Source: a virus (taxonomy: Duplodnaviria; Heunggongvirae; Uroviricota; Caudoviricetes). From it: a stretch of DNA of 33,534 bases. Positions 10,484 through 29,378 of this stretch are shown here, one piece after another (position 1 is the first letter of the stretch; the number at the start of each line of letters is the position of its first letter). The notes under the pieces are model-generated. The model was not told the origin of the DNA and did not search any database. It worked only from the letters and a program-made list of their open reading frames with translations. The position numbers and the translations under genes were made by a program. The stretch lies in IMG/VR virus record IMGVR_UViG_2558860170_000005. One strand, written 5' to 3'.

Positions 10484-11082
10484 TACGCAAACTCCAGCAG
10501 CTGCGCGGCCACATTTTCGACTTGTTCCGGAGAGGAAAATTTACGGAACAGAATCCAGTTCCACAGCACATTCAGAACAGATTTATAAACCTGCTGAAAC
10601 TCGGTTTCGTCCATATTCGCAAAAGCGATGGATTTTGCCCGACGCCCGCGGCTACCGTCCGGATAAAAATGTTCGGTGTAAAATCCAGCCTGAATGGTTA
10701 CCCACTCGCGAAAAGCCTCAAACGACTTTAGCAATGCCGTATCCCGGGTTCTGCGTGTCGCAACTGTATTCAGATATTGCTCTGCGGCTTCGCTCAGAGC
10801 TGGCGTATGTTCCCGACCTACTGATTCGCACAGGTAATCAACGAAACCAGACAGCAGTTCTCGTTCGCGAGGCGTGATCGCCCCACCGACCGGAGTCCAG
10901 TAATCGAATCCCAGTTGCAGGAGTTTGAAAAAACGCTTGTGGAATGCGTAGTTACGCACACGCTTAAAGTCTGCGTGTATCCACTCACCTGTTTTGATTT
11001 GATGCAGAAAATCGCAACTCTCCGGCGTCGCCGGGAGAAGTAATCCGGAAGAGGTTTGTTTGATCAGTTGTATATGCGCCAT
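10483..11082 (-). CDS. YbcN-like phage protein (DUF1367 type)
   Basis: MAHIQLIKQTSSGLLLPATPES…KSIAFANMDETEFQQVYKSVLNVLW… resembles DLP12 YbcN. Confidence 0.55.
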   Translation of the reverse strand: MAHIQLIKQTSSGLLLPATPESCDFLHQIKTGEWIHADFKRVRNYAFHKRFFKLLQLGFDYWTPVGGAITPRERELLSGFVDYLCESVGREHTPALSEAAEQYLNTVATRRTRDTALLKSFEAFREWVTIQAGFYTEHFYPDGSRGRRAKSIAFANMDETEFQQVYKSVLNVLWNWILFRKFSSPEQVENVAAQLLEFA

Positions 11083-11366: not shown

Positions 11367-11472
11367 GATGCCTCCAGGTTTATAAGTACAAACGGTTATA
11401 TCAACATAGAGACAAAAGGTGATGCTGCCAACTTACTGATTTAGTGTATGATGGTGTTTTTGAGGTGCTCCA

Positions 11473-11748
11473 GTGGCTTCTGTTTCTATCAGCTGTCCCT
11501 CCTGTTCAGCTACTGACGGGGTGGTGCGTAACGGCAAAAGCACTGCCGGACATCAGCGCTATCTCTGCTCTCACTGCCGTAAAACATGGCAACTGCAGTT
11601 CACTTACACCGCTTCCCAACCCGGTACGCACCAGAAAATCATTGATATGGCCATGAATGGCGTTGGATGCCGGGCAACTGCACGCATTATGGGCGTTGGC
11701 CTCAACACGATTTTACGTCACTTAAAAAACTCAGGCCGCAGTCGGTAA
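11473..11748 (+). CDS. insA: IS1 InsA
   Basis: Same as copy 1. Confidence 0.95.
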
Positions 11749-12170
11749 CCTCGCGCATACAGCCGGGCAGTGACGTCATCGTCTGCGCGGAAATGGACGA
11801 ACAGTGGGGCTATGTCGGGGCTAAATCGCGCCAGCGCTGGCTGTTTTACGCGTATGACAGTCTCCGGAAGACGGTTGTTGCGCACGTATTCGGTGAACGC
11901 ACTATGGCGACGCTGGGGCGTCTTATGAGCCTGCTGTCACCCTTTGACGTGGTGATATGGATGACGGATGGCTGGCCGCTGTATGAATCCCGCCTGAAGG
12001 GAAAGCTGCACGTAATCAGCAAGCGATATACGCAGCGAATTGAGCGGCATAACCTGAATCTGAGGCAGCACCTGGCACGGCTGGGACGGAAGTCGCTGTC
12101 GTTCTCAAAATCGGTGGAGCTGCATGACAAAGTCATCGGGCATTATCTGAACATAAAACACTATCAATAA
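11667..12170 (+). CDS. insB: IS1 InsB
   Basis: Same as copy 1. Confidence 0.95.
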
Positions 12171-12277
12171 GTTGGAGTCATTACCAAAAAAACCGCCGAA
12201 ACGGGTTAAGTGCGGGTGCGTTGAGGATGCCTGACACATCAAAGGTGGCGGGAGATTACTCTCCCGCCTGGTCACTC

Positions 12278-14500: not shown

Positions 14501-14988
14501 TCATTACCGCCCTTTCGAGCGGTCTCCTGATGATTTGAGGGTGCAGAAATCCCTCCGGTTAAGGATTAAATTTTTAACAGTGCTAAATTTAATTATTCAG
14601 TTCTGGATTTTGTCGCCCTGCGTATCCGCGCTTTCGCGTTACGCTCAATCTGTATCAGCTTTTCTATATTTCTCCGCCTTTCCTGTTCCTCCTGGCGCAA
14701 TAGCCTTACATCATCTGCCAGTCTGGTTTCTCTTTTTGCCACAGAGAGCATCCAGTCAAACGGCTCCACAACCGCACCGCAGATTTTACAGCGGACCTGA
14801 CGCTCTTTTTCGTCAACCCGGACAGAGGCGTGATGGCAATATGGTCTTTCCGATGGTTCATAAAGAAAATTAACCTGATTACGTGGGTCATCCTCTTTTA
14901 CCGGAAATAAAACGATATTGCTTAACTCATCTTGGTGATGCTGCCAACTTACTGATTTAGTGTATGATGGTGTTTTTGAGGTGCTCCA

Positions 14989-15264
14989 GTGGCTTCTGTT
15001 TCTATCAGCTGTCCCTCCTGTTCAGCTACTGACGGGGTGGTGCGTAACGGCAAAAGCACTGCCGGACATCAGCGCTATCTCTGCTCTCACTGCCGTAAAA
15101 CATGGCAACTGCAGTTCACTTACACCGCTTCTCAACCCGGTACGCACCAGAAAATCATTGATATGGCCATGAATGGCGTTGGATGCCGGGCAACTGCACG
15201 CATTATGGGCGTTGGCCTCAACACGATTTTACGTCACTTAAAAAACTCAGGCCGCAGTCGGTAA
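14989..15264 (+). CDS. insA: IS1 InsA
   Basis: Same as copy 1. Confidence 0.95.
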
Positions 15265-15686
15265 CCTCGCGCATACAGCCGGGCAGTGACGTCATCGTCT
15301 GCGCGGAAATGGACGAACAGTGGGGCTATGTCGGGGCTAAATCGCGCCAGCGCTGGCTGTTTTACGCGTATGACAGTCTCCGGAAGACGGTTGTTGCGCA
15401 CGTATTCGGTGAACGCACTATGGCGACGCTGGGGCGTCTTATGAGCCTGCTGTCACCCTTTGACGTGGTGATATGGATGACGGATGGCTGGCCGCTGTAT
15501 GAATCCCGCCTGAAGGGAAAGCTGCACGTAATCAGCAAGCGATATACGCAGCGAATTGAGCGGCATAACCTGAATCTGAGGCAGCACCTGGCACGGCTGG
15601 GACGGAAGTCGCTGTCGTTCTCAAAATCGGTGGAGCTGCATGACAAAGTCATCGGGCATTATCTGAACATAAAACACTATCAATAA
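15183..15686 (+). CDS. insB: IS1 InsB
   Basis: Same as copy 1. Confidence 0.95.
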
Positions 15687-15904
15687 GTTGGAGTCATTAC
15701 CAACTCATCTTCTGGTTTTATTTCCATGCTCCTCTCCTTTGATGCGAATACCAGCGGTAATTGAAGCCTGATAGCTAATTTTACTCACAGTACCGCCTCC
15801 TGAAATTTCCCCTGATAAAACGCCAGCACGCGCTGCATAGTGAGGTAGCCTGAGTTTAACGGACACTCCTTCCTGAAATAGAATGGCATCAGAAGGAGCT
15901 AATA

Positions 15905-19876: not shown

Positions 19877-20115
19877 GAATCAACCGCTCCTATGCTGTTT
19901 TCGCTATGCTTACCGTCTGGGGGGAATACATCGTCAAGTCCACAATGAGCGCCAAGCCGATTAAGGGTAGAAACAATTTTTCTGCACTCCTCTAGTCCAG
20001 GGGTACGAAAATTTGCTTCGTAATTTGCCAGTCGGCTTTGTATCCACCCTAACTGAACAGCAAGTTGTCTTTGAGACAGCCCAAGCTGTTTTCGATATGT
20101 TGAAATTTTGTTCAT
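19873..20115 (-). CDS. Cro-like HTH regulator (YdaS-like)
   Basis: 80-aa ORF with HTH (…LGLSQRQLAVQLGWIQSRLANYE…), divergent from the cI-like gene; GGAGG 8 nt upstream of ATG. Confidence 0.6.
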   Translation of the reverse strand: MNKISTYRKQLGLSQRQLAVQLGWIQSRLANYEANFRTPGLEECRKIVSTLNRLGAHCGLDDVFPPDGKHSENSIGAVDS

Positions 20116-20139
20116 TGAAAACCTCCGATGACAATTTTA

Positions 20140-20154
20140 AACACACCTTGTGTT
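20140..20154. promoter_or_regulatory. Operator palindrome AACAC-N5-GTGTT (OR-type)
   Basis: AACACACCTTGTGTT, 25-39 bp upstream of the cro-like start; same half-sites recur at 20715-20729. Confidence 0.55.
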
Positions 20155-20185
20155 ATATAGCCAAGCTGTTTTGTGTTTTATGTAA

Positions 20186-20200
20186 ATCACGATTCGTGAT
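20186..20200. promoter_or_regulatory. Operator-like palindrome ATCAC-N5-GTGAT
   Basis: ATCACGATTCGTGAT, perfect 15-bp palindrome just upstream of the cI-like start. Confidence 0.45.
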
Positions 20201-20211
20201 ACAAGGATGCA

Positions 20212-20631
20212 ATGGAAAAAGAAAACGAAAAAATTGCCGCTAGTAGGCTCAATGACAAAATTGCAATGCGTCTTAAAGAGCGCAGGCAGAAGCTTGGTTT
20301 ATCTCAAGGAAAACTTGCTGAAATCTGCGGATGGACGCAATCGCGTATAGGTAACTATGAGGCGGGCAGCAGAAATGTTGGAGTACATGACGCTGTCGTA
20401 TTGGGAAAGGCACTTGGCATATCTCCTCCTGAGCTCCTCTTTGGAGAACAGGAATCTTCTGAATTGTGGTTAAATGAATCCCAACGAAAACTTCTTGAGT
20501 TGTTTAACCAGCTACCGGGCTCAGAACAACAACGAATGATTGAGCTATTTGAAGTCCGGCTAAAAGAAATCGATGAGTATGTAGAAAAATATTTGAGAGG
20601 CAGGATTAAAGATAATCCCCCACCGGAATAA
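20212..20631 (+). CDS. CI-like repressor (XRE-family HTH)
   Basis: 139-aa ORF with N-terminal HTH (…LGLSQGKLAEICGWTQSRIGNYE…), divergent from the cro-like gene and followed by a terminator. Confidence 0.6.
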   Translation: MEKENEKIAASRLNDKIAMRLKERRQKLGLSQGKLAEICGWTQSRIGNYEAGSRNVGVHDAVVLGKALGISPPELLFGEQESSELWLNESQRKLLELFNQLPGSEQQRMIELFEVRLKEIDEYVEKYLRGRIKDNPPPE

Positions 20632-20661
20632 TGATCTTGCTATCACAGTAATATGCCAATC

Positions 20662-20686
20662 AGCCCGCTATCAGCGGGCTTTTTTG
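20662..20686 (+). terminator. Intrinsic terminator after the repressor gene
   Basis: AGCCCGC-tatca-GCGGGCT followed by TTTTTTG. Confidence 0.65.
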
Positions 20687-20714
20687 TAGCATCATCATAT
20701 GACACTCACCATAA

Positions 20715-20756
20715 AACACATTGCGTGTTGACACAAGAAAACAAATTGTGTTTAAT
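20715..20756 (+). promoter_or_regulatory. PL-like early promoter with overlapping operator
   Basis: -35 TTGACA (20728-20733), 17-bp spacer, -10 TTTAAT (20751-20756); palindrome AACACATTGCGTGTT (20715-20729) overlaps the -35. Confidence 0.5.
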
Positions 20757-20936
20757 AAGCATATCCAAACAACGCCCCACCAGAGAACGGCAGGACAATA
20801 CCTCGAGTTATCCAGTCACTGAACAGGGCTAAGTAGCCAGCCTGAGGCATACGAACATGACGGCAGTTGTTGATTGATACAAAGCGCAGTAGATAAAACG
20901 TTCCGCCACCCGGCGTTAAGGGGAAATGGGGTCAAC

Positions 20937-21092
20937 ATGAATACTATCGATCTTGGCAACAACGAATCTCTGGTATGTGGCGTGTTTCCCAATCAAGACG
21001 GCACATTCACCGCCATGACGTATACCAAAAGCAAAACGTTTAAAACCGAAGCTGGCGCACGTCGTTGGTTGGGAAGACATTCAGGTGAGTAA
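20937..21092 (+). CDS. DUF1391-type small phage protein (YdaF-like)
   Basis: 51-aa MNTIDLGNNESLVCGVFPNQDGTFTAMTYTK…; first gene after the PL-like promoter. Confidence 0.5.
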   Translation: MNTIDLGNNESLVCGVFPNQDGTFTAMTYTKSKTFKTEAGARRWLGRHSGE

Positions 21093-21126
21093 AATGAACG
21101 AGACAGAATTAAAACACGTTATCGCT

Positions 21127-22288
21127 CTACTCCTAAATAGCTGCGCGGAATAGTAGATCACTTTGAGGGAACTTAGCCCGGATTGTGCGATCTGATCAAT
21201 CGCCAAATCAAAACAAATCACCAACCGGACTGAGCAATGCCGATCATAGCACCAATTTCCCGTGACGAACGACGCCTGATGCAGAAAGCCATCCATAAAA
21301 CACACGATAAAAATTATGCCCGCAGACTGACTGCCATGCTGATGCTGCACCGGGGCGACCGTGTCAGCGACGTTGCCAGAACGCTCTGCTGCGCCCGTTC
21401 CTCTGTTGGACGCTGGATTAACTGGTTCACGCAGTCGGGTGTTGAGGGACTGAAATCATTACCTGCCGGGCGTGCCCGTCGCTGGCCGTTTGAGCATATC
21501 TGCACACTGTTACGTGAGCTGGTAAAACATTCTCCCGGCGACTTTGGCTACCAGCGTTCACGCTGGAGTACAGAACTGCTGGCAATAAAAATCAATGAGA
21601 TAACCGGTTGCCAGTTAAATGCCGGAACCGTTCGCCGCTGGTTGCCGTCTGCGGGGATTGTGTGGCGAAGGGCTGCGCCAACTCTGCGTATCCGTGACCC
21701 GCATAAAGATGAAAAGATGGCAGCAATCCATAAAGCACTGGACGAATGCAGCGCAGAGCATCCGGTCTTTTATGAAGATGAAGTGGATATCCATCTTAAT
21801 CCCAAAATCGGTGCGGACTGGCAACTGCGCGGACAGCAAAAACGGGTGGTCACGCCGGGACAGAATGAAAAATATTATCTGGCCGGAGCGCTGCACAGCG
21901 GGACAGGTAAAGTCAGCTGTGTGGGCGGCAACAGCAAAAGTTCGGCGCTGTTCATCAGCCTGCTGAAGCGGCTTAAAGCGACATACCGTCGGGCGAAAAC
22001 CATCACGCTGATCGTGGACAACTACATTATCCACAAAAGCCGGGAAACACAGAGCTGGCTGAAGGAGAACCCGAAGTTCAGGGTCATTTATCAGCCGGTT
22101 TACTCGCCATGGGTGAATCATGTTGAACGGCTATGGCAGGCACTTCACGACACAATAACGCGTAATCATCAGTGCAGCTCAATGTGGCAACTGTTGAAAA
22201 AAGTTCGCCATTTTATGGAAACCGTCAGCCCATTCCCCGGAGGCAAACATGGGCTGGCAAAAGTGTAGCGGTATTAAGCGCAGCTATT
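21127..22288 (+). mobile_element. IS630 (Tc1/mariner-like), inserted at CTAG with TA duplication
   Basis: Terminal inverted repeat AATAGCTGCGC…; flanks …CTCC-TA | IS | TA-GAAG rebuild a CTAG target; 343-aa transposase. Confidence 0.85.
21237..22268 (+). CDS. IS630 transposase
   Basis: 343-aa MPIIAPISRDERRLMQKAIHKTHDKNYARRL… recognised as IS630 transposase. Confidence 0.9.
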   Translation: MPIIAPISRDERRLMQKAIHKTHDKNYARRLTAMLMLHRGDRVSDVARTLCCARSSVGRWINWFTQSGVEGLKSLPAGRARRWPFEHICTLLRELVKHSPGDFGYQRSRWSTELLAIKINEITGCQLNAGTVRRWLPSAGIVWRRAAPTLRIRDPHKDEKMAAIHKALDECSAEHPVFYEDEVDIHLNPKIGADWQLRGQQKRVVTPGQNEKYYLAGALHSGTGKVSCVGGNSKSSALFISLLKRLKATYRRAKTITLIVDNYIIHKSRETQSWLKENPKFRVIYQPVYSPWVNHVERLWQALHDTITRNHQCSSMWQLLKKVRHFMETVSPFPGGKHGLAKV

Positions 22289-22428
22289 TAGAAGATGCAA
22301 AACGCCTCCAGCAACTGGAGCCAAATGCAGGCACTGGGGCACGCATCTGGCTGGCTAAAGAAGCGCTGGAATCTGGCGATTATGATAGCGAAGAAGCCTT
22401 CTACAAAGCAGAAGGCCGTACAGGATAT

Positions 22429-22725
22429 TCACCGGGTCTTGGCGGGGTATAAATACCATGCGCATTGACTGAATTCGCAAACAAAAACAGACGCGCGATA
22501 CCTGGATAGTCGGTCTGCATAGTCAGATATCTGGCTGCGAATTTGATAAATATCACCGCCCTTTTCGGAAACATAAGTTCCGTCCGGGAGTTGATTATAC
22601 GAACCATCTCCATGGGGGATCGTTCTCCTGAATCCTAGTGAGAGCATATATTTATGAAGCCCTTCGTAATCCTCTGGCTCAGCATTATATAGTTCTACTC
22701 TGGCGAGATACGTTGGCATATTCAT
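22429..22725 (-). CDS. Hypothetical 98-aa protein, opposite to the surrounding early-left genes (moron candidate)
   Basis: ATG preceded by TAAGGAA; convergent with and overlapping the 3' end of the IS630-split gene; no motif recognised. Confidence 0.4.
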   Translation of the reverse strand: MNMPTYLARVELYNAEPEDYEGLHKYMLSLGFRRTIPHGDGSYNQLPDGTYVSEKGGDIYQIRSQISDYADRLSRYRASVFVCEFSQCAWYLYPAKTR

Positions 22726-23226
22726 TTCCTTACTGGTTGTGTGAGAACTTCAGTAAAGATACCACCAAAGCCCGGAGGTGGTGAAATAAAACCGGGCACA
22801 ACACGAAGGCGCATTTCCGGTATCCATAAAGAGTCGGTCTTGTCTGTTAAATTTAAATGGTGGGAGTGCGCCTCCGGTTGTAAATAACGACATTGCTGTG
22901 TGAAGTACCAGTTGGCGGCATCGGTTTAATTGCTGGCTGATGTCCGCCCTTTTTAAAGTGAATTTTGTGATGCGGTGAATGCGGCTCAGCGCACGCGGAA
23001 CAGTTAAAACAGTAAGGAAAATCCCTTATTCCGGCGTTAATTGTTAACTGGTTAACGTCACCTGGAGGCACCAGGCACCGCATCAACAAAGTTCACTTCG
23101 GTGATGAAAGGAAAGAGAAAATGTTGAATGTAGCTATTGAAAACCAGAACGGGTGGAATTATAGTGCACCTGCACCTCATAAAACGGGTGCCGGGATTGC
23201 TACCCCGAAGTCATTCACGGCGCATA

Positions 23227-23248
23227 ACCGCGCTCAGGCGGTTTTTTT
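23227..23248 (+). terminator. Putative intrinsic terminator / attenuator upstream of Rha
   Basis: ACCGC-gctcag-GCGGT followed by TTTTTTT. Confidence 0.5.
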
Positions 23249-23414
23249 ATGCGTAATGCACAGCCACATTCAAATTATGGTGGGGCGTGCGGGGCAGTCG
23301 CAAGACTGGCCGGGTTCCGTGATGACCGGTTGTAGCAACCCTGTACGTCTCACCACCCATGAGATTGCTACCTCCGGTGGTGAGTTAATCAAATTCATCG
23401 CGGAGGCTGCCATC

Positions 23415-23966
23415 ATGGCTACTACCCTTTCTCACCCTTGTGTAACCGTAGAAAACGGTCGCGCTGTCACTACGTCTGTTGCGGTTGCAGAGTTCTTCCA
23501 CAAACGACACGACAATGTGTTACGTGCCATCGCAAATATTGAATGCTCAGATAAATTTACTGCCCTCAATTTTGAAGCGAGCGAATACACCGACTCAATC
23601 GGGCGCAAACTCCCAATGTACCAAATCACCAAAAACGGCTTCGTTTTCCTGGTTATGGGCTTCACTGGCAAAAAAGCCGCTGCATTCAAAGAAGCCTACA
23701 TTGCTGAGTTCGACCGCATGGAGGCCGAACTGCGCCAGAATAACACCCCACCTGCTGACAAGATGATTCCGGGTGATGGTCGCACTCTGGTTGTTCACTT
23801 CGACAAATTCGGCAATGTCGAATTCACCGAAACCGTTCCTGATGGCGCACTGGTCTGTACCCTGGAGACTTTCCGGTTTTATCTGGAAAAACAGGGATGG
23901 ACTCTTGTTAACCGGGGCGCAATTAAAAATATGACTGTGGAACAATTACTCAAAATTCATTGTTGA
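23415..23966 (+). CDS. rha: Rha-family phage regulatory protein
   Basis: N-terminal …TTSVAVAEFFHKRHDNVLRAIANI… Rha signature; ATG at 23415 with GGAGG 8 nt upstream. The upstream open frame from 23121 is probably leader. Confidence 0.7.
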   Translation: MATTLSHPCVTVENGRAVTTSVAVAEFFHKRHDNVLRAIANIECSDKFTALNFEASEYTDSIGRKLPMYQITKNGFVFLVMGFTGKKAAAFKEAYIAEFDRMEAELRQNNTPPADKMIPGDGRTLVVHFDKFGNVEFTETVPDGALVCTLETFRFYLEKQGWTLVNRGAIKNMTVEQLLKIHC

Positions 23967-23976
23967 GGACGCAATA

Positions 23977-24165
23977 ATGGAGACGTTATTACCAAACGTT
24001 AATACGTCTGAAGGTTGTTTTGAAATTGGTGTCACTATCAGTAACCCTGTATTTACTGAAGATGCCATTAACAAGAGAAAACACGAACGGGAGCTATTAA
24101 ATAAAATATGCATTGTTTCAATGCTGGCTCGTTTACGTCTGATGCCAAAAGGATGTGCACAATGA
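23977..24165 (+). CDS. Hypothetical small phage protein
   Basis: 62-aa ORF with GAGGA upstream; stop overlaps the next start (ATGA). Confidence 0.35.
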   Translation: METLLPNVNTSEGCFEIGVTISNPVFTEDAINKRKHERELLNKICIVSMLARLRLMPKGCAQ

Positions 24166-24353
24166 ATACAGTATTTGCACTCGTTCTGACGGTTTTTCTT
24201 GTTTCCGGTGAACCGGTTGACATGGTTACTGGCGTATACAGCTCAATGAAAGAATGTATGACTGCCGCAGCGAAACAGAAAATTCCCGGTGACTGTTATC
24301 CGGTCGATAAAGTTATTCACCATGATAATAACGAAATCCCGGCAGGTCTTTAA
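24162..24353 (+). CDS. Small protein with N-terminal signal-peptide-like segment
   Basis: MNTVFALVLTVFLVSGEP… hydrophobic N-terminus; translationally coupled to the upstream ORF. Confidence 0.4.
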   Translation: MNTVFALVLTVFLVSGEPVDMVTGVYSSMKECMTAAAKQKIPGDCYPVDKVIHHDNNEIPAGL

Positions 24354-24437
24354 AACAGTTCCGTAATAAATATCCGGTTTCATTCTTATATGCCAGCAAT
24401 GGCAGGGGTTCGCTCAACCTTAATTAAGGAGAAAAAC

Positions 24438-24713
24438 ATGATTACCAGTTATGAAGCCACTGTTGTAACTACTGATGACATTGTTCACGAGGTTAATCTG
24501 GAAGGAAAGCGTATTGGCTACGTGATTAAGACAGAAAATAAAGAAACCCCATTCACTGTGGTTGATATCGACGGTCCATCAGGCAACGTTAAAACACTTA
24601 ACGATGGTGTAAAAAAAATGTGTCTGGTGCACATAGGAAAGAATCTGCCCGCAGAAAAAAAAGCCGAATTTCTGGCAACTCTGATTGCAATGAAATTAAA
24701 AGGTGAAATCTGA
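24438..24713 (+). CDS. Hypothetical 91-aa protein (RacC-like by size and position)
   Basis: ATG at 24438 with AAGGAG 6 nt upstream; directly precedes the recE-like gene. Confidence 0.4.
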   Translation: MITSYEATVVTTDDIVHEVNLEGKRIGYVIKTENKETPFTVVDIDGPSGNVKTLNDGVKKMCLVHIGKNLPAEKKAEFLATLIAMKLKGEI

Positions 24714-24908
24714 AAAAAAGAAAGCCTGCACACTGTGCAGGCCTGAGTGAAGAACCTGGGACATTTATTCATCACTCGCAGTAATTTTAATCTGAGTTGA
24801 GGTTAAAAAACAATGAGCACCGATAAACAAGTTTACCCACTGTATGAGGTAGCCTGAGTTTAACGGACACTCCTTCCTGAAATAGAATGGCATCAGAAGG
24901 AGCTAATA

Positions 24909-25211
24909 ATGAGCAGAAAAACCCAACGTTACTCTAAAGAGTTCAAAGCCGAAGCTGTCAGAACGGTTCCTGAAAATCAACTTTCGATCAGTGAAGGCGC
25001 TTCCCGATTATCTCTTCCTGAAGGCACTTTAGGACAATGGGTTACCGCCGCCAGAAAAGGGCTCGGTACTCCTGGTTCCCGCACGGTGGCTGAACTGGAA
25101 TCTGAAATTCTGCAACTGCGTAAGGCGTTAAATGAAGCTCGCCTTGAGCGAGATATATTAAAAAAAGCAACAGCGTATTTTGCACAGGAGTCGCTGAAAA
25201 ATACGCGTTAA
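24909..25211 (+). CDS. IS600 OrfA
   Basis: Same as other copies. Confidence 0.95.
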   Translation: MSRKTQRYSKEFKAEAVRTVPENQLSISEGASRLSLPEGTLGQWVTAARKGLGTPGSRTVAELESEILQLRKALNEARLERDILKKATAYFAQESLKNTR

Positions 25212-25246
25212 TCGAACAATGGCGACAACAATTTCCCATTGAAGCG

Positions 25247-26065
25247 ATGTGTCAGGTATTTGGTGTATCCAGGAGCGGTTATTACAACTGGGTACAGCAT
25301 GAACCCTCAGACAGAAAACAAAGTGATGAGCGGCTAAAACTGGAGATTAAGGTGGCACATATCCGCACTCGCGAAACATATGGAACCCGGCGGCTCCAGA
25401 CGGAGCTGGCAGAGAATGGCATCATCGTTGGTCGTGACCGACTGGCACGTCTTCGTAAGGAGCTAAGGCTACGCTGTAAGCAGAAACGCAAGTTCAGAGC
25501 GACTACGAACTCGAACCACAATCTGCCAGTTGCGCCAAATCTGCTGAACCAGACGTTCGCTCCTACAGCACCAAATCAGGTCTGGGTGGCGGACCTGACG
25601 TATGTTGCCACACAGGAGGGATGGTTGTACCTCGCTGGCATCAAAGATGTTTATACGTGCGAAATTGTCGGCTACGCCATGGGAGAGCGCATGACAAAAG
25701 AGCTGACAGGTAAAGCCCTGTTTATGGCGCTCAGGAGCCAGCGCCCACCTGCCGGGCTAATCCACCACTCTGATCGAGGTTCACAGTACTGCGCATACGA
25801 TTACCGGGTCATACAGGAGCAGTCTGGTCTGAAAACATCAATGTCGCGTAAAGGTAACTGTTACGACAACGCTCCGATGGAAAGCTTCTGGGGAACGCTG
25901 AAAAATGAGAGCCTGAGCCACTATCGTTTTAATAACCGGGATGAAGCCATCTCAGTAATACGGGAATACATTGAGATTTTCTACAATCGTCAGCGTCGTC
26001 ACTCTCGTCTGGGGAATATATCCCCGGCAGCCTTCAGGGAAAAATATCATCAGATGGCTGCTTAA
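25247..26065 (+). CDS. IS600 OrfB
   Basis: Same as other copies. Confidence 0.95.
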
Positions 26066-27693
26066 AAAAAGAACAAATGGTAGTGTCCGCTATTGCCAGT
26101 ACACCTCAGTATTACGAAGCAAAAAATGACAAAGTAAGAAAACGCCTCGGTATTAAAGGCGGTTTTTACTGGGCTGAAGCGAAAAAATTATCCATTGCCA
26201 TCTCCCGTGGTGCTGTTGCGATTGACGATGCTGGCTACGATGAAGATGACTTTAAAAAACCTGTTCGCGTCAATTTGCCCGTTGTTGGTGACCTCCCACC
26301 AGAAGGCGTGTTTGATACGGAATTCTGCAACCGTTACGAAAAAGGCGGGGAAGATGGCATCACAATGGTATTTATCGCATCTTCTCCCTCTGTTCAGGAC
26401 AAACCAGCCAGCACTGACAATACCAACGTCAACGGCGAAGACATGACAGAAATTGAGGAGAACATGCTCCTGCCAGTTTCCGGTCAGGAACTGCCCATTC
26501 GCTGGCTTGCTCAACACGGCAGCGAAAAACCGGTAACGCACGTTTCACGCGACGGACTCCAGGCATTACACATTGCTCGGGCTGAAGAACTACCGGCTGT
26601 TACTGCCCTGGCTGTTTCCCACAAAACCAGCCTGCTCGACCCGCTGGAAATTCGCGATCTCCACAAACTGGTTCGTGACACTGACAAAGTTTTCCCTAAT
26701 CCTGGTAATTCAAGCCTGGGACTGATAACTGCTTTTTTCGAAGCATACCTGAACGCTGACTACACCGATCGAGGACTGCTGACAAAAGAGTGGATGAAGG
26801 GTAATCGTGTTTCACACATCACTCGCACGGCTTCCGGTGCTAATGCTGGCGGCGGAAACCTCACCGATCGCGGCGAAGGTTTCGTACACGATCTGACGTC
26901 ACTGGCGCGCGACGTAGCCACTGGCGTACTGGCCCGTTCAATGGATCTGGACATCTATAACCTTCATCCGGCACACGCTAAACGCATTGAGGAAATTATC
27001 GCTGAAAATAAACCGCCCTTTTCTGTTTTCCGCGACAAATTCATCACCATGCCTGGCGGGCTGGATTATTCCCGCGCCATCGTGGTTGCGTCCGTAAAAG
27101 AAGCACCAATTGGGATCGAGGTCATCCCCGCGCACGTCACTGAATATCTGAACAAGGTACTGACTGAAACCGATCATGCCAACCCTGATCCGGAAATCGT
27201 GGATATTGCCTGCGGTCGCTCCTCTGCCCCGATGCCGCAGCGTGTAACAGAAGAAGGAAAACAGGATGATGAAGAAAAACCGCAACCATCTTGCGCAATG
27301 GCAGATGAACAGGCAACGGCTGAAACAGTGGAACCGGATGCAACTGAACATCATCAGGACACGCAGCCGCTGGATGCTCAGTCACAGGTAAATGCTGTTG
27401 ATGCGAAATATCAGAAACTGCGGACAGAACTCCATGAAGCCCGGAAAAACATTCCGCCCAAAAATCCTGTCGATGCAGACAAATTACTGGCTGCCTCTCG
27501 CGGAGAATTTGTTGAAGGGATTAGCGACCCGAATGATTCGAAATGGATTCCCGGTCATCATATCTCCTCAAATGAAGTCAAAAAAACGGAAAATAAAGTG
27601 CGACAGACTGAAGATAAACAGCACCAGAACAGCGAACCGGAGGAGCGAACTGAGGTGTACTGGCAATAGCGGACACTACCATTTGTTCTTTTT

Positions 27694-28512
27694 TTAAGCA
27701 GCCATCTGATGATATTTTTCCCTGAAGGCTGCCGGGGAGATATTCCCCAGACGAGAGTGACGACGCTGACGATTGTAGAAAATCTCAATGTATTCCCGTA
27801 TTACTGAGATGGCTTCATCCCGGTTATTAAAACGATAGTGGCTCAGGCTCTCATTTTTCAGCGTTCCCCAGAAGCTTTCCATCGGAGCGTTGTCGTAACA
27901 GTTACCTTTACGCGACATTGATGTTTTCAGACCAGACTGCTCCTGTATGACCCGGTAATCGTATGCGCAGTACTGTGAACCTCGATCAGAGTGGTGGATT
28001 AGCCCGGCAGGTGGGCGCTGGCTCCTGAGCGCCATAAACAGGGCTTTACCTGTCAGCTCTTTTGTCATGCGCTCTCCCATGGCGTAGCCGACAATTTCGC
28101 ACGTATAAACATCTTTGATGCCAGCGAGGTACAACCATCCCTCCTGTGTGGCAACATACGTCAGGTCCGCCACCCAGACCTGATTTGGTGCTGTAGGAGC
28201 GAACGTCTGGTTCAGCAGATTTGGCGCAACTGGCAGATTGTGGTTCGAGTTCGTAGTCGCTCTGAACTTGCGTTTCTGCTTACAGCGTAGCCTTAGCTCC
28301 TTACGAAGACGTGCCAGTCGGTCACGACCAACGATGATGCCATTCTCTGCCAGCTCCGTCTGGAGCCGCCGGGTTCCATATGTTTCGCGAGTGCGGATAT
28401 GTGCCACCTTAATCTCCAGTTTTAGCCGCTCATCACTTTGTTTTCTGTCTGAGGGTTCATGCTGTACCCAGTTGTAATAACCGCTCCTGGATACACCAAA
28501 TACCTGACACAT
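27694..28512 (-). CDS. IS600 OrfB
   Basis: Same as other copies. Confidence 0.95.
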   Translation of the reverse strand: MCQVFGVSRSGYYNWVQHEPSDRKQSDERLKLEIKVAHIRTRETYGTRRLQTELAENGIIVGRDRLARLRKELRLRCKQKRKFRATTNSNHNLPVAPNLLNQTFAPTAPNQVWVADLTYVATQEGWLYLAGIKDVYTCEIVGYAMGERMTKELTGKALFMALRSQRPPAGLIHHSDRGSQYCAYDYRVIQEQSGLKTSMSRKGNCYDNAPMESFWGTLKNESLSHYRFNNRDEAISVIREYIEIFYNRQRRHSRLGNISPAAFREKYHQMAA

Positions 28513-28547
28513 CGCTTCAATGGGAAATTGTTGTCGCCATTGTTCGA

Positions 28548-28850
28548 TTAACGCGTATTTTTCAGCGACTCCTGTGCAAAATACGCTGTTGCTTTTTTTA
28601 ATATATCTCGCTCAAGGCGAGCTTCATTTAACGCCTTACGCAGTTGCAGAATTTCAGATTCCAGTTCAGCCACCGTGCGGGAACCAGGAGTACCGAGCCC
28701 TTTTCTGGCGGCGGTAACCCATTGTCCTAAAGTGCCTTCAGGAAGAGATAATCGGGAAGCGCCTTCACTGATCGAAAGTTGATTTTCAGGAACCGTTCTG
28801 ACAGCTTCGGCTTTGAACTCTTTAGAGTAACGTTGGGTTTTTCTGCTCAT
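28548..28850 (-). CDS. IS600 OrfA
   Basis: Same as other copies. Confidence 0.95.
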   Translation of the reverse strand: MSRKTQRYSKEFKAEAVRTVPENQLSISEGASRLSLPEGTLGQWVTAARKGLGTPGSRTVAELESEILQLRKALNEARLERDILKKATAYFAQESLKNTR

Positions 28851-28914
28851 TATTAGCTCCTTCTGATGCCATTCTATTTCAGGAAGGAGTGTCCGTTAAA
28901 CTCAGGCTACCTCA

Positions 28915-29099
28915 ATAATGAAACTGGCGAAGATGAACTCAACTGGAAAAAACAGGTGTTGATTGCGGCGGTTTACGGTTTATGTGCGAATCCTGCGTGC
29001 ATAGCCTATGCGCCTGCAATCCCTGACATCGCAATGATGATTGCCAACAAGCTTGAAAATTTTGGAGTGACCAGTGATGAGCGCTTACCCGATTTTTGA
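28915..29099 (+). pseudogene. 3' fragment of an unknown early gene truncated by IS600 copy 5
   Basis: Open frame …[60 protein letters not shown] with no own start downstream of the IS end; overlaps the gam start. Confidence 0.35.
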
Positions 29100-29373
29100 T
29101 CGTATTGAAGAAATGGCATGGGCTCGCCACTACCAGCAGATCGTTCGTGAAGAAAAAGAAACGGAACTGGCGGACGACCTGGAAAAAGGTCTGCCTCAGC
29201 ACCTGTTTGAATCGCTCTGCATCGACCATTTGCAACGCCACGGTGCCAATAAACAGGCAATCAGCCACGCATTTGATGATGATGTTGAGTTTCAGGAGCG
29301 CATGGCAGAACACATCCGGTACATGGCTGAAACCATTGCCCACCACCAGGTTGATATTGATTTGGAGGACTAA
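29077..29373 (+). CDS. gam: Gam (RecBCD inhibitor), short form
   Basis: …[81 protein letters not shown]… closely matches lambda Gam as I recall it. Confidence 0.85.
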
Positions 29374-29378
29374 AATCT

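Follow-up and report, generated by a model that had tools for sequence, protein, structure and literature searches.

A RecE relative apparently lacking a nuclease domain, split by two inverted IS600 copies in a decayed Shigella sonnei prophage

We analyzed a recE-like gene in the 33,534-nucleotide stretch of viral DNA deposited as IMG/VR record IMGVR_UViG_2558860170_000005, hereafter the window. The gene lies in three pieces separated by copies 4 and 5 of the insertion sequence (IS) IS600 (Table 1), and the two hits in inverted orientation that an original prediction had read from the DNA letters were confirmed in coordinates and strand. Both copies are 1,264 bp long, end in TGAGGT...ACCTCA, and fit IS600 and the IS3 family in size, terminal inverted repeats and the −1 arrangement of orfA (helix-turn-helix) and orfB (DDE/rve). 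They are 99.7–99.8% identical to an element of Escherichia coli VL40 that the Prokaryotic Genome Annotation Pipeline (PGAP) names ‘IS3-like element IS600 family transposase, programmed frameshift’. Copies 4 and 5 share 1,263 of 1,264 nt, with a sole difference at IS position 1176 (A versus C), and form inverted repeats 1,542 bp apart, in line with the 1.26-kb copies around 1.54 kb noted earlier. The middle fragment of the gene lies between the right ends of both.

Copy 4 is a clean insertion after codon 10 of the gene. It is flanked by a 3-bp target duplication, GTA, at positions 24842–24844 and 26109–26111, and the uninterrupted target in an IS-free relative, the locus of enteroinvasive E. 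coli (EIEC) strain RMDEC332 (L001), reads CCACTGTATTACG with a single GTA. When copy 4 and one GTA are removed, ATG(24813)...CCACTGTA joins TTACGAAG... in frame and continues from 26112 to 27650. The clean insertion and the exact rejoining of the frame had both been predicted and both stand; the rejoined frame reaches copy 5 after 523 full codons plus 2 nt, not after the 524 residues first given. Three further IS600 copies in the window carry 3-bp duplications of their own (CAC at copy 2, TAG at copy 3 and TTG at copy 6). Copy 5 has none, as the prediction had also stated, and its flanks read AAC and ATA.

The IS-free allele accounts for this missing duplication. The nearest E. coli matches are 99.3–99.6% identical and include EIEC CFSAN029787 and several human stool isolates; the L001 locus is 99.6% identical and carries, at 8972–10912, an intact open reading frame (ORF) of 646 amino acids (aa), with gam and an AAA_24 ATPase gene behind it. 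The middle fragment matches L001 9001–10542 at 99.6% identity, and the match to this locus stays collinear on either side of copy 5, window position 27650 corresponding to L001 10542 and window position 28915 to L001 10728. Beside copy 5 only 185 bp are missing (183–185, depending on 2 ambiguous nt at the right junction), namely L001 10543–10727 or codons 524–586, a stretch that includes a C-x8-CxxC motif. Because the flanks are collinear, a local deletion of ~185 bp explains the missing duplication. Position 28914, where the original prediction placed the limit of the gene, is not its end: the last 61 codons and stop survive beyond copy 5 and encode a protein segment identical to the L001 tail.

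An origin of the missing duplication by inversion was also considered and is needless, since the flanks are collinear with the IS-free locus. The remaining IS600 copies of the window offered no matching half-duplication as a partner for copy 5, and the pattern of single-nucleotide differences across the six IS600 copies revealed nothing useful about recombination between copies 4 and 5. Copy 1 (window 2223–3486, − strand) likewise has no target duplication (flanks GGC and TTC); neither of its half-sites has a partner at copy 5, and it therefore marks a separate deletion or rearrangement.

The reconstructed 523-aa product is recognizably the N-terminal region of exodeoxyribonuclease VIII, which answers the family check proposed with the original prediction. 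Pfam PF06630 (Exonuc_VIII) matches it at E 1.2e-37 and NCBIfam PRK09709 (exodeoxyribonuclease VIII) covers it over positions 1–516 of 877 at E 1e-294, with a score of 980 bits that falls below the PRK09709 equivalog cut-off of 1269 bits because the C-terminal part is missing. The middle fragment shares 78–81% identity with the part of K-12 RecE up to residue 585, and residues 48–591 of the intact L001 protein align with RecE 40–585 at 78% identity. Similarity then ends, and past this point L001 encodes a conserved 55-aa tail, with a 23-nt overlap into the start of gam. The end of homology falls at the boundary of the RecE nuclease domain, which a 2023 review places at residues 564–866 (PMC11611040) and which spans 606–866 in the crystal structure.

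No trace of a nuclease was found past this boundary. Searches of the whole window by tblastn with RecE 586–866 and with RecT gave no match, the intact IS-free allele carries Pfam PF06630 only and no PF12684, and a search of PDB sequences with the 646-aa protein as query returned only a chance hit and no match to the RecE nuclease. There is no adjacent recT partner, the next genes being gam and the AAA_24 ATPase gene. By these comparisons the gene is RecE-like in its N-terminal region only; the predicted likeness to RecE holds for that region, but not for a whole exonuclease. In the same way, copy 5 does break the frame, as had been claimed, but the nuclease loss that this claim implied fails against the nuclease-free 646-aa allele. 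Copy 5 evidently removed no nuclease domain, and the allele never had a nuclease domain or recT to lose; the absent duplication reflects a ~185-bp deletion, not the loss of a domain.

The IS-free allele has many relatives. A protein search returned dozens of intact 646–671-aa homologs with PF06630 only, in Shigella, E. coli and E. albertii, and also found the same N-terminal region joined to PF12684 (canonical RecE, ~884 aa) or to PF16473 (~814 aa). From these three architectures it follows that the RecE N-terminal region combines with at least three different C-termini. The PF16473 fusions (P0073–P0075, P0102, P0115, P0117 and P0119) carry a DnaQ-like 3′–5′ exonuclease domain instead of PD-(D/E)XK at a full length of ~814 aa. 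The complete genomes of the Shiga toxin (Stx) phages 75/02 Stx, POCJ13 and PhiR5_2 encode 682–690-aa versions, 56% identical over 98% of the length, that sit just 5′ of gam-bet-exo, an order that further prophages of E. coli and E. albertii repeat. Among 1.84 billion cluster representatives, the search gave 219 matches at E ≤0.001, and distant homologs in IMG/VR prophages are directly followed by excisionase and integrase genes, without gam, bet or exo.

The family layout comprises the RecE N-terminal fold, a disordered, acidic linker carrying a CxxC motif that resembles a zinc ribbon, and a C-terminal two-helix hairpin predicted at residues 596–634. With a hidden Markov model of the tail, more than 20 representatives, at only 20–33% identity to the query, were found to carry at their very C-terminal end the motif ..QQL.IAA..GLCANPA....IP.MA..LA. 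This motif of ~40 aa is encoded at window 28915–29099 and at L001 10728–10912, and its carriers include P0137, P0172, P0224 and P0263; the six scanned of these more than 20 distant tail-carrying representatives contained no Pfam nuclease domain. A tblastn search of the phage collection with the 55-aa tail alone gave no match, the query probably being too short or filtered. No Pfam model covers the tail or the conserved core (query residues ~230–400), and the RecE N-terminal fold (~390 residues) had no fold match in the PDB. Pairwise ratios of non-synonymous to synonymous substitution (dN/dS) are 0.08–0.35 for the whole gene and ~0–0.28 for the tail, and intact ORFs of 646–690 aa persist at 56–98% identity. 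Together these comparisons argue that the nuclease-free RecE relative is a real, conserved and old gene family under purifying selection that is present in viable Stx phages. On balance the destroyed gene seems to belong to a free-standing and apparently uncharacterized phage family of nuclease-free RecE N-terminal proteins, encoded beside lambda-type gam-bet-exo or gam-AAA_24 modules in E. coli, Shigella and Stx phages, and alone by xis-int in prophages that are more distant.

These observations suggest a simple history. The ancestral early-left operon carried, just 5′ of gam, a 646-aa gene composed of the RecE N-terminal region, an acidic linker and a two-helix tail, without a nuclease. Copy 4 entered after codon 10 by simple IS3-family transposition with the usual 3-bp duplication GTA. 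Copy 5 represents a separate insertion near codon 524 in the opposite orientation, with ~185 bp lost beside it and the frame shifted; that loss may have arisen by recombination between two IS600 copies inserted in the same orientation ~185 bp apart, or as an adjacent deletion made by the element itself. We are highly confident that the gene was destroyed by two independent IS600 events in a decayed S. sonnei prophage and that its ancestor had no nuclease, and the S. sonnei gene is presumably non-functional.

Table 1. Positions of the gene pieces, IS600 copies, hybrid reading frames and downstream genes in the window
Feature	Position	Strand	Remarks
Gene 5′ end	24813–24844	+	ATG, 10 codons plus 2 nt; last 3 nt are the left GTA; start as in the PGAP coding sequence in L001
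IS600 copy 4	24845–26108	+	1264 bp; exact end-matching
IS600 copy 4 orfA	24909–25211	+	Pfam HTH_Tnp_1
IS600 copy 4 orfB	25247–26065	+	−1 frame relative to orfA; Pfam rve
530-aa hybrid ORF	26077–27669	+	Start and stop codons lie in the right ends of the two IS600 copies
Gene middle fragment	26109–27650	+	Codon 11 to second base of codon 524, after the duplicated GTA
IS600 copy 5	27651–28914	−	1264 bp; exact end-matching; flanks AAC / ATA
77-aa hybrid ORF	28866–29099	+	Starts in an IS600 left end, reads into the tail remnant; cluster representative P0202
Gene 3′ remnant	28915–29099	+	Ancestral codons 586–646 plus stop; overlaps gam start by 23 nt
gam, lambda-type host-nuclease inhibitor	29077–29373	+	Intact; Pfam PF06064, E 8e-56
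AAA_24 ATPase, 365 aa, weakly Sak4-like	29379–30476	+	Intact, 3′ of gam; Pfam PF13479, E 7.5e-14

Other histories would account for parts of this arrangement. The fragment matches only positions 1–516 of the 877-position model, and an IS copy without a duplication is often a sign of IS-mediated deletion; both features would also suit an originally full-length gene for the RecE exonuclease from which copy 5 deleted or severed the nuclease domain (and recT). With just ~185 bp gone between flanks that are collinear with the IS-free locus, an IS-free allele that lacks a nuclease domain and has gam as its next gene, many intact 646–690-aa homologs of the same architecture, and neither a nuclease domain nor recT detected in the window by tblastn, we regard such a loss as extremely improbable. 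A less drastic view takes the 646-aa IS-free ORF itself as a dead remnant of recE, left after a gam module replaced its 3′ half, in which case IS600 struck a pseudogene and nothing was lost. PGAP labels the inspected IS-free E. coli alleles in just this sense, as ‘incomplete; missing C-terminus’, and one of them is also frameshifted. Intact ORFs at 56–98% identity that extend to complete Stx phage genomes, the low dN/dS of both the whole gene and the tail, and a tail motif kept at the C-terminus of more than 20 representatives only 20–33% identical speak against a dead remnant, and we consider it unlikely.

Two further readings concern the pair of IS600 copies as such. Two near-identical inverted copies around 1.54 kb have the outline of a composite transposon that arrived, or is mobile, as a unit, and a draft contig (L007) has IS600 and the gene fragment beside a different flank. 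Yet the GTA of the outer left flank has its partner on the inward-facing side of copy 4, from which it follows that copy 4 inserted alone and in place; the outermost flanking triplets, GTA and ATA, differ, the enclosed segment belongs to the locus and aligns collinearly with the IS-free allele, and L007 is perhaps an assembly chimera across a multi-copy repeat. We rejected the composite transposon on its unmatched outer flanks and native cargo, and find it scarcely conceivable. Inversion of the segment deserves somewhat more credit: inverted repeats with 1,263 of 1,264 nt in common and a spacing of 1.5 kb suit RecA-dependent inversion well, inversions flanked by IS elements have been described in S. 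sonnei (PMC12795559), and recombination between the two copies could possibly flip the 1.54-kb fragment. That homologous recombination actively inverts it and leaves mixed populations is nonetheless rather doubtful. The assembled orientation is ancestral, because frame and collinearity with L001 are preserved; the published S. sonnei survey covered only rearrangements >7 kb (PMC12795559); and a flip would have no coding consequence, as it merely reorients a dead fragment. Both inner junctions are IS600 right ends, and an inversion therefore leaves all four junction sequences unchanged and is detectable only by reads, amplicons or contigs that span a whole IS (>1.3 kb), whereas draft contigs stop inside the IS.

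Several points weigh against our preferred history of two independent insertions into a nuclease-free gene. The one sequence is compatible with either order of the insertions and with both routes to the 185-bp loss; the gene may have been inactive before the hits, and gam and the AAA_24 ATPase gene may still be expressed. PGAP already calls the IS-free allele a pseudogene, and the hits may thus have been free of cost. The contig L007 (GCA_900159305.1, FTYY01000236.1, 1–1849), a 4.8-kb S. sonnei draft, shows a different left flank, ...GGAGGTGT, at the IS600 left end and then the recE fragment, which may represent either an IS600-mediated rearrangement at copy 4 in some isolates or an assembly chimera. 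This left flank carries a DnaB-type helicase gene and an 83-aa ORF.

The broken gene has left database entries of its own. The 530-aa hybrid ORF is labeled ‘exonuclease VIII [Shigella sonnei]’, and an exact-sequence look-up placed it in 31 contigs, named only as S. sonnei and mostly drafts of ~1.8 kb that end within IS copies. This database ‘exonuclease VIII’ is an ORF bounded by IS sequence and cannot be a nuclease. Three substitutions are specific to the window (D70G, E506K and G523R); all three are non-synonymous, D70 is otherwise invariant, and although the numbers are tiny they would be compatible with drift after inactivation. For the intact relatives the labels run the other way, as annotation pipelines call a conserved nuclease-free relative of RecE a pseudogene. 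The RecE N-terminal region has been reported to enhance linear–linear recombineering, and the nuclease-free relative offers a route to studying this unexplained region.

Downstream of the 3′ remnant, gam and the AAA_24 ATPase gene are intact, and both IS copies probably cut them off from the operon promoter. A promoter and terminator scan of 24300–29500 found only the promoter-like site of IS600 itself and nothing above chance. The best PHROG of the ATPase is 1366 (function not known), with PHROG 124 ‘Sak4-like’ at E 9e-9. Its gene occupies the slot held by bet-exo in sister prophages, and the protein may be the annealase of this module. Beyond it follow a DUF1187 gene, an excisionase-like gene, an integrase gene split by IS600 copy 6 and a ttcA-like gene.

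Window positions 20077–33534 are 100% identical to S. sonnei 53G (HE616528.1, 1957464–1971056). The ttcA-like ATP_bind_3 gene is the next gene past the split integrase, as at K-12 Rac, and this position points to the Rac prophage site of K-12. The window is a lambdoid prophage in decay, located at the ttcA (Rac) site of S. sonnei. Copy 6 (31780–33043) cuts the integrase into an Arm-DNA-bind_2 part (31032–31787) and a Phage_integrase part (from 33079), and the prophage therefore cannot excise. A repeat scan of the 33.5-kb window counted six IS600 and three IS1 copies, the latter at 1113–1883, 11415–12185 and 14934–15701; an IS630-type (DDE_3) transposase gene lies at 21237–22268, and insertion sequences make up roughly one third of the window. 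IS600 copy 2 (6444–8959) is itself split at IS position 450 by an element of ~1250 bp (6894–8142/8145) with the ends TGAAGTGGTCAACAAAAACTGGCCACC... and ...GGTGGCCAAATTCAGTGTGCCACTTCA, which presumably resembles IS911.

IS600 is among five insertion sequences expanded in all Shigella, for the mapping of which 53G served as reference genome, and its expansion and IS-driven pseudogenization are documented in Shigella, where it is a major source of pseudogenes (PMC7373316). The feature described here is ordinary, already known Shigella genome decay in a published S. sonnei reference genome. It shares with other Shigella IS600 insertions the 1264-bp element, the −1 orfA/orfB arrangement and the 3-bp duplication, and differs from the usual case in having two insertions in one gene, in opposite orientation, one of them with a small adjacent deletion. 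With recE of the K-12 Rac prophage the gene shares the site by ttcA, the early-left operon position and PF06630; unlike K-12 RecE, the ancestral protein had no PD-(D/E)XK nuclease domain (PF12684) and no recT partner, but a 55-aa helical tail, followed by gam and AAA_24. The closest parallel in layout is gp06 of phage 75/02 Stx, annotated ‘Exodeoxyribonuclease VIII’, with its counterparts in POCJ13 and PhiR5_2, which combine the RecE N-terminal region, an acidic linker with CxxC, the conserved tail and an overlap with the start of gam, as seen here. In these Stx phages the gene is intact and gam-bet-exo follows, whereas in S. sonnei two IS600 elements split the gene, and gam and AAA_24 come next.

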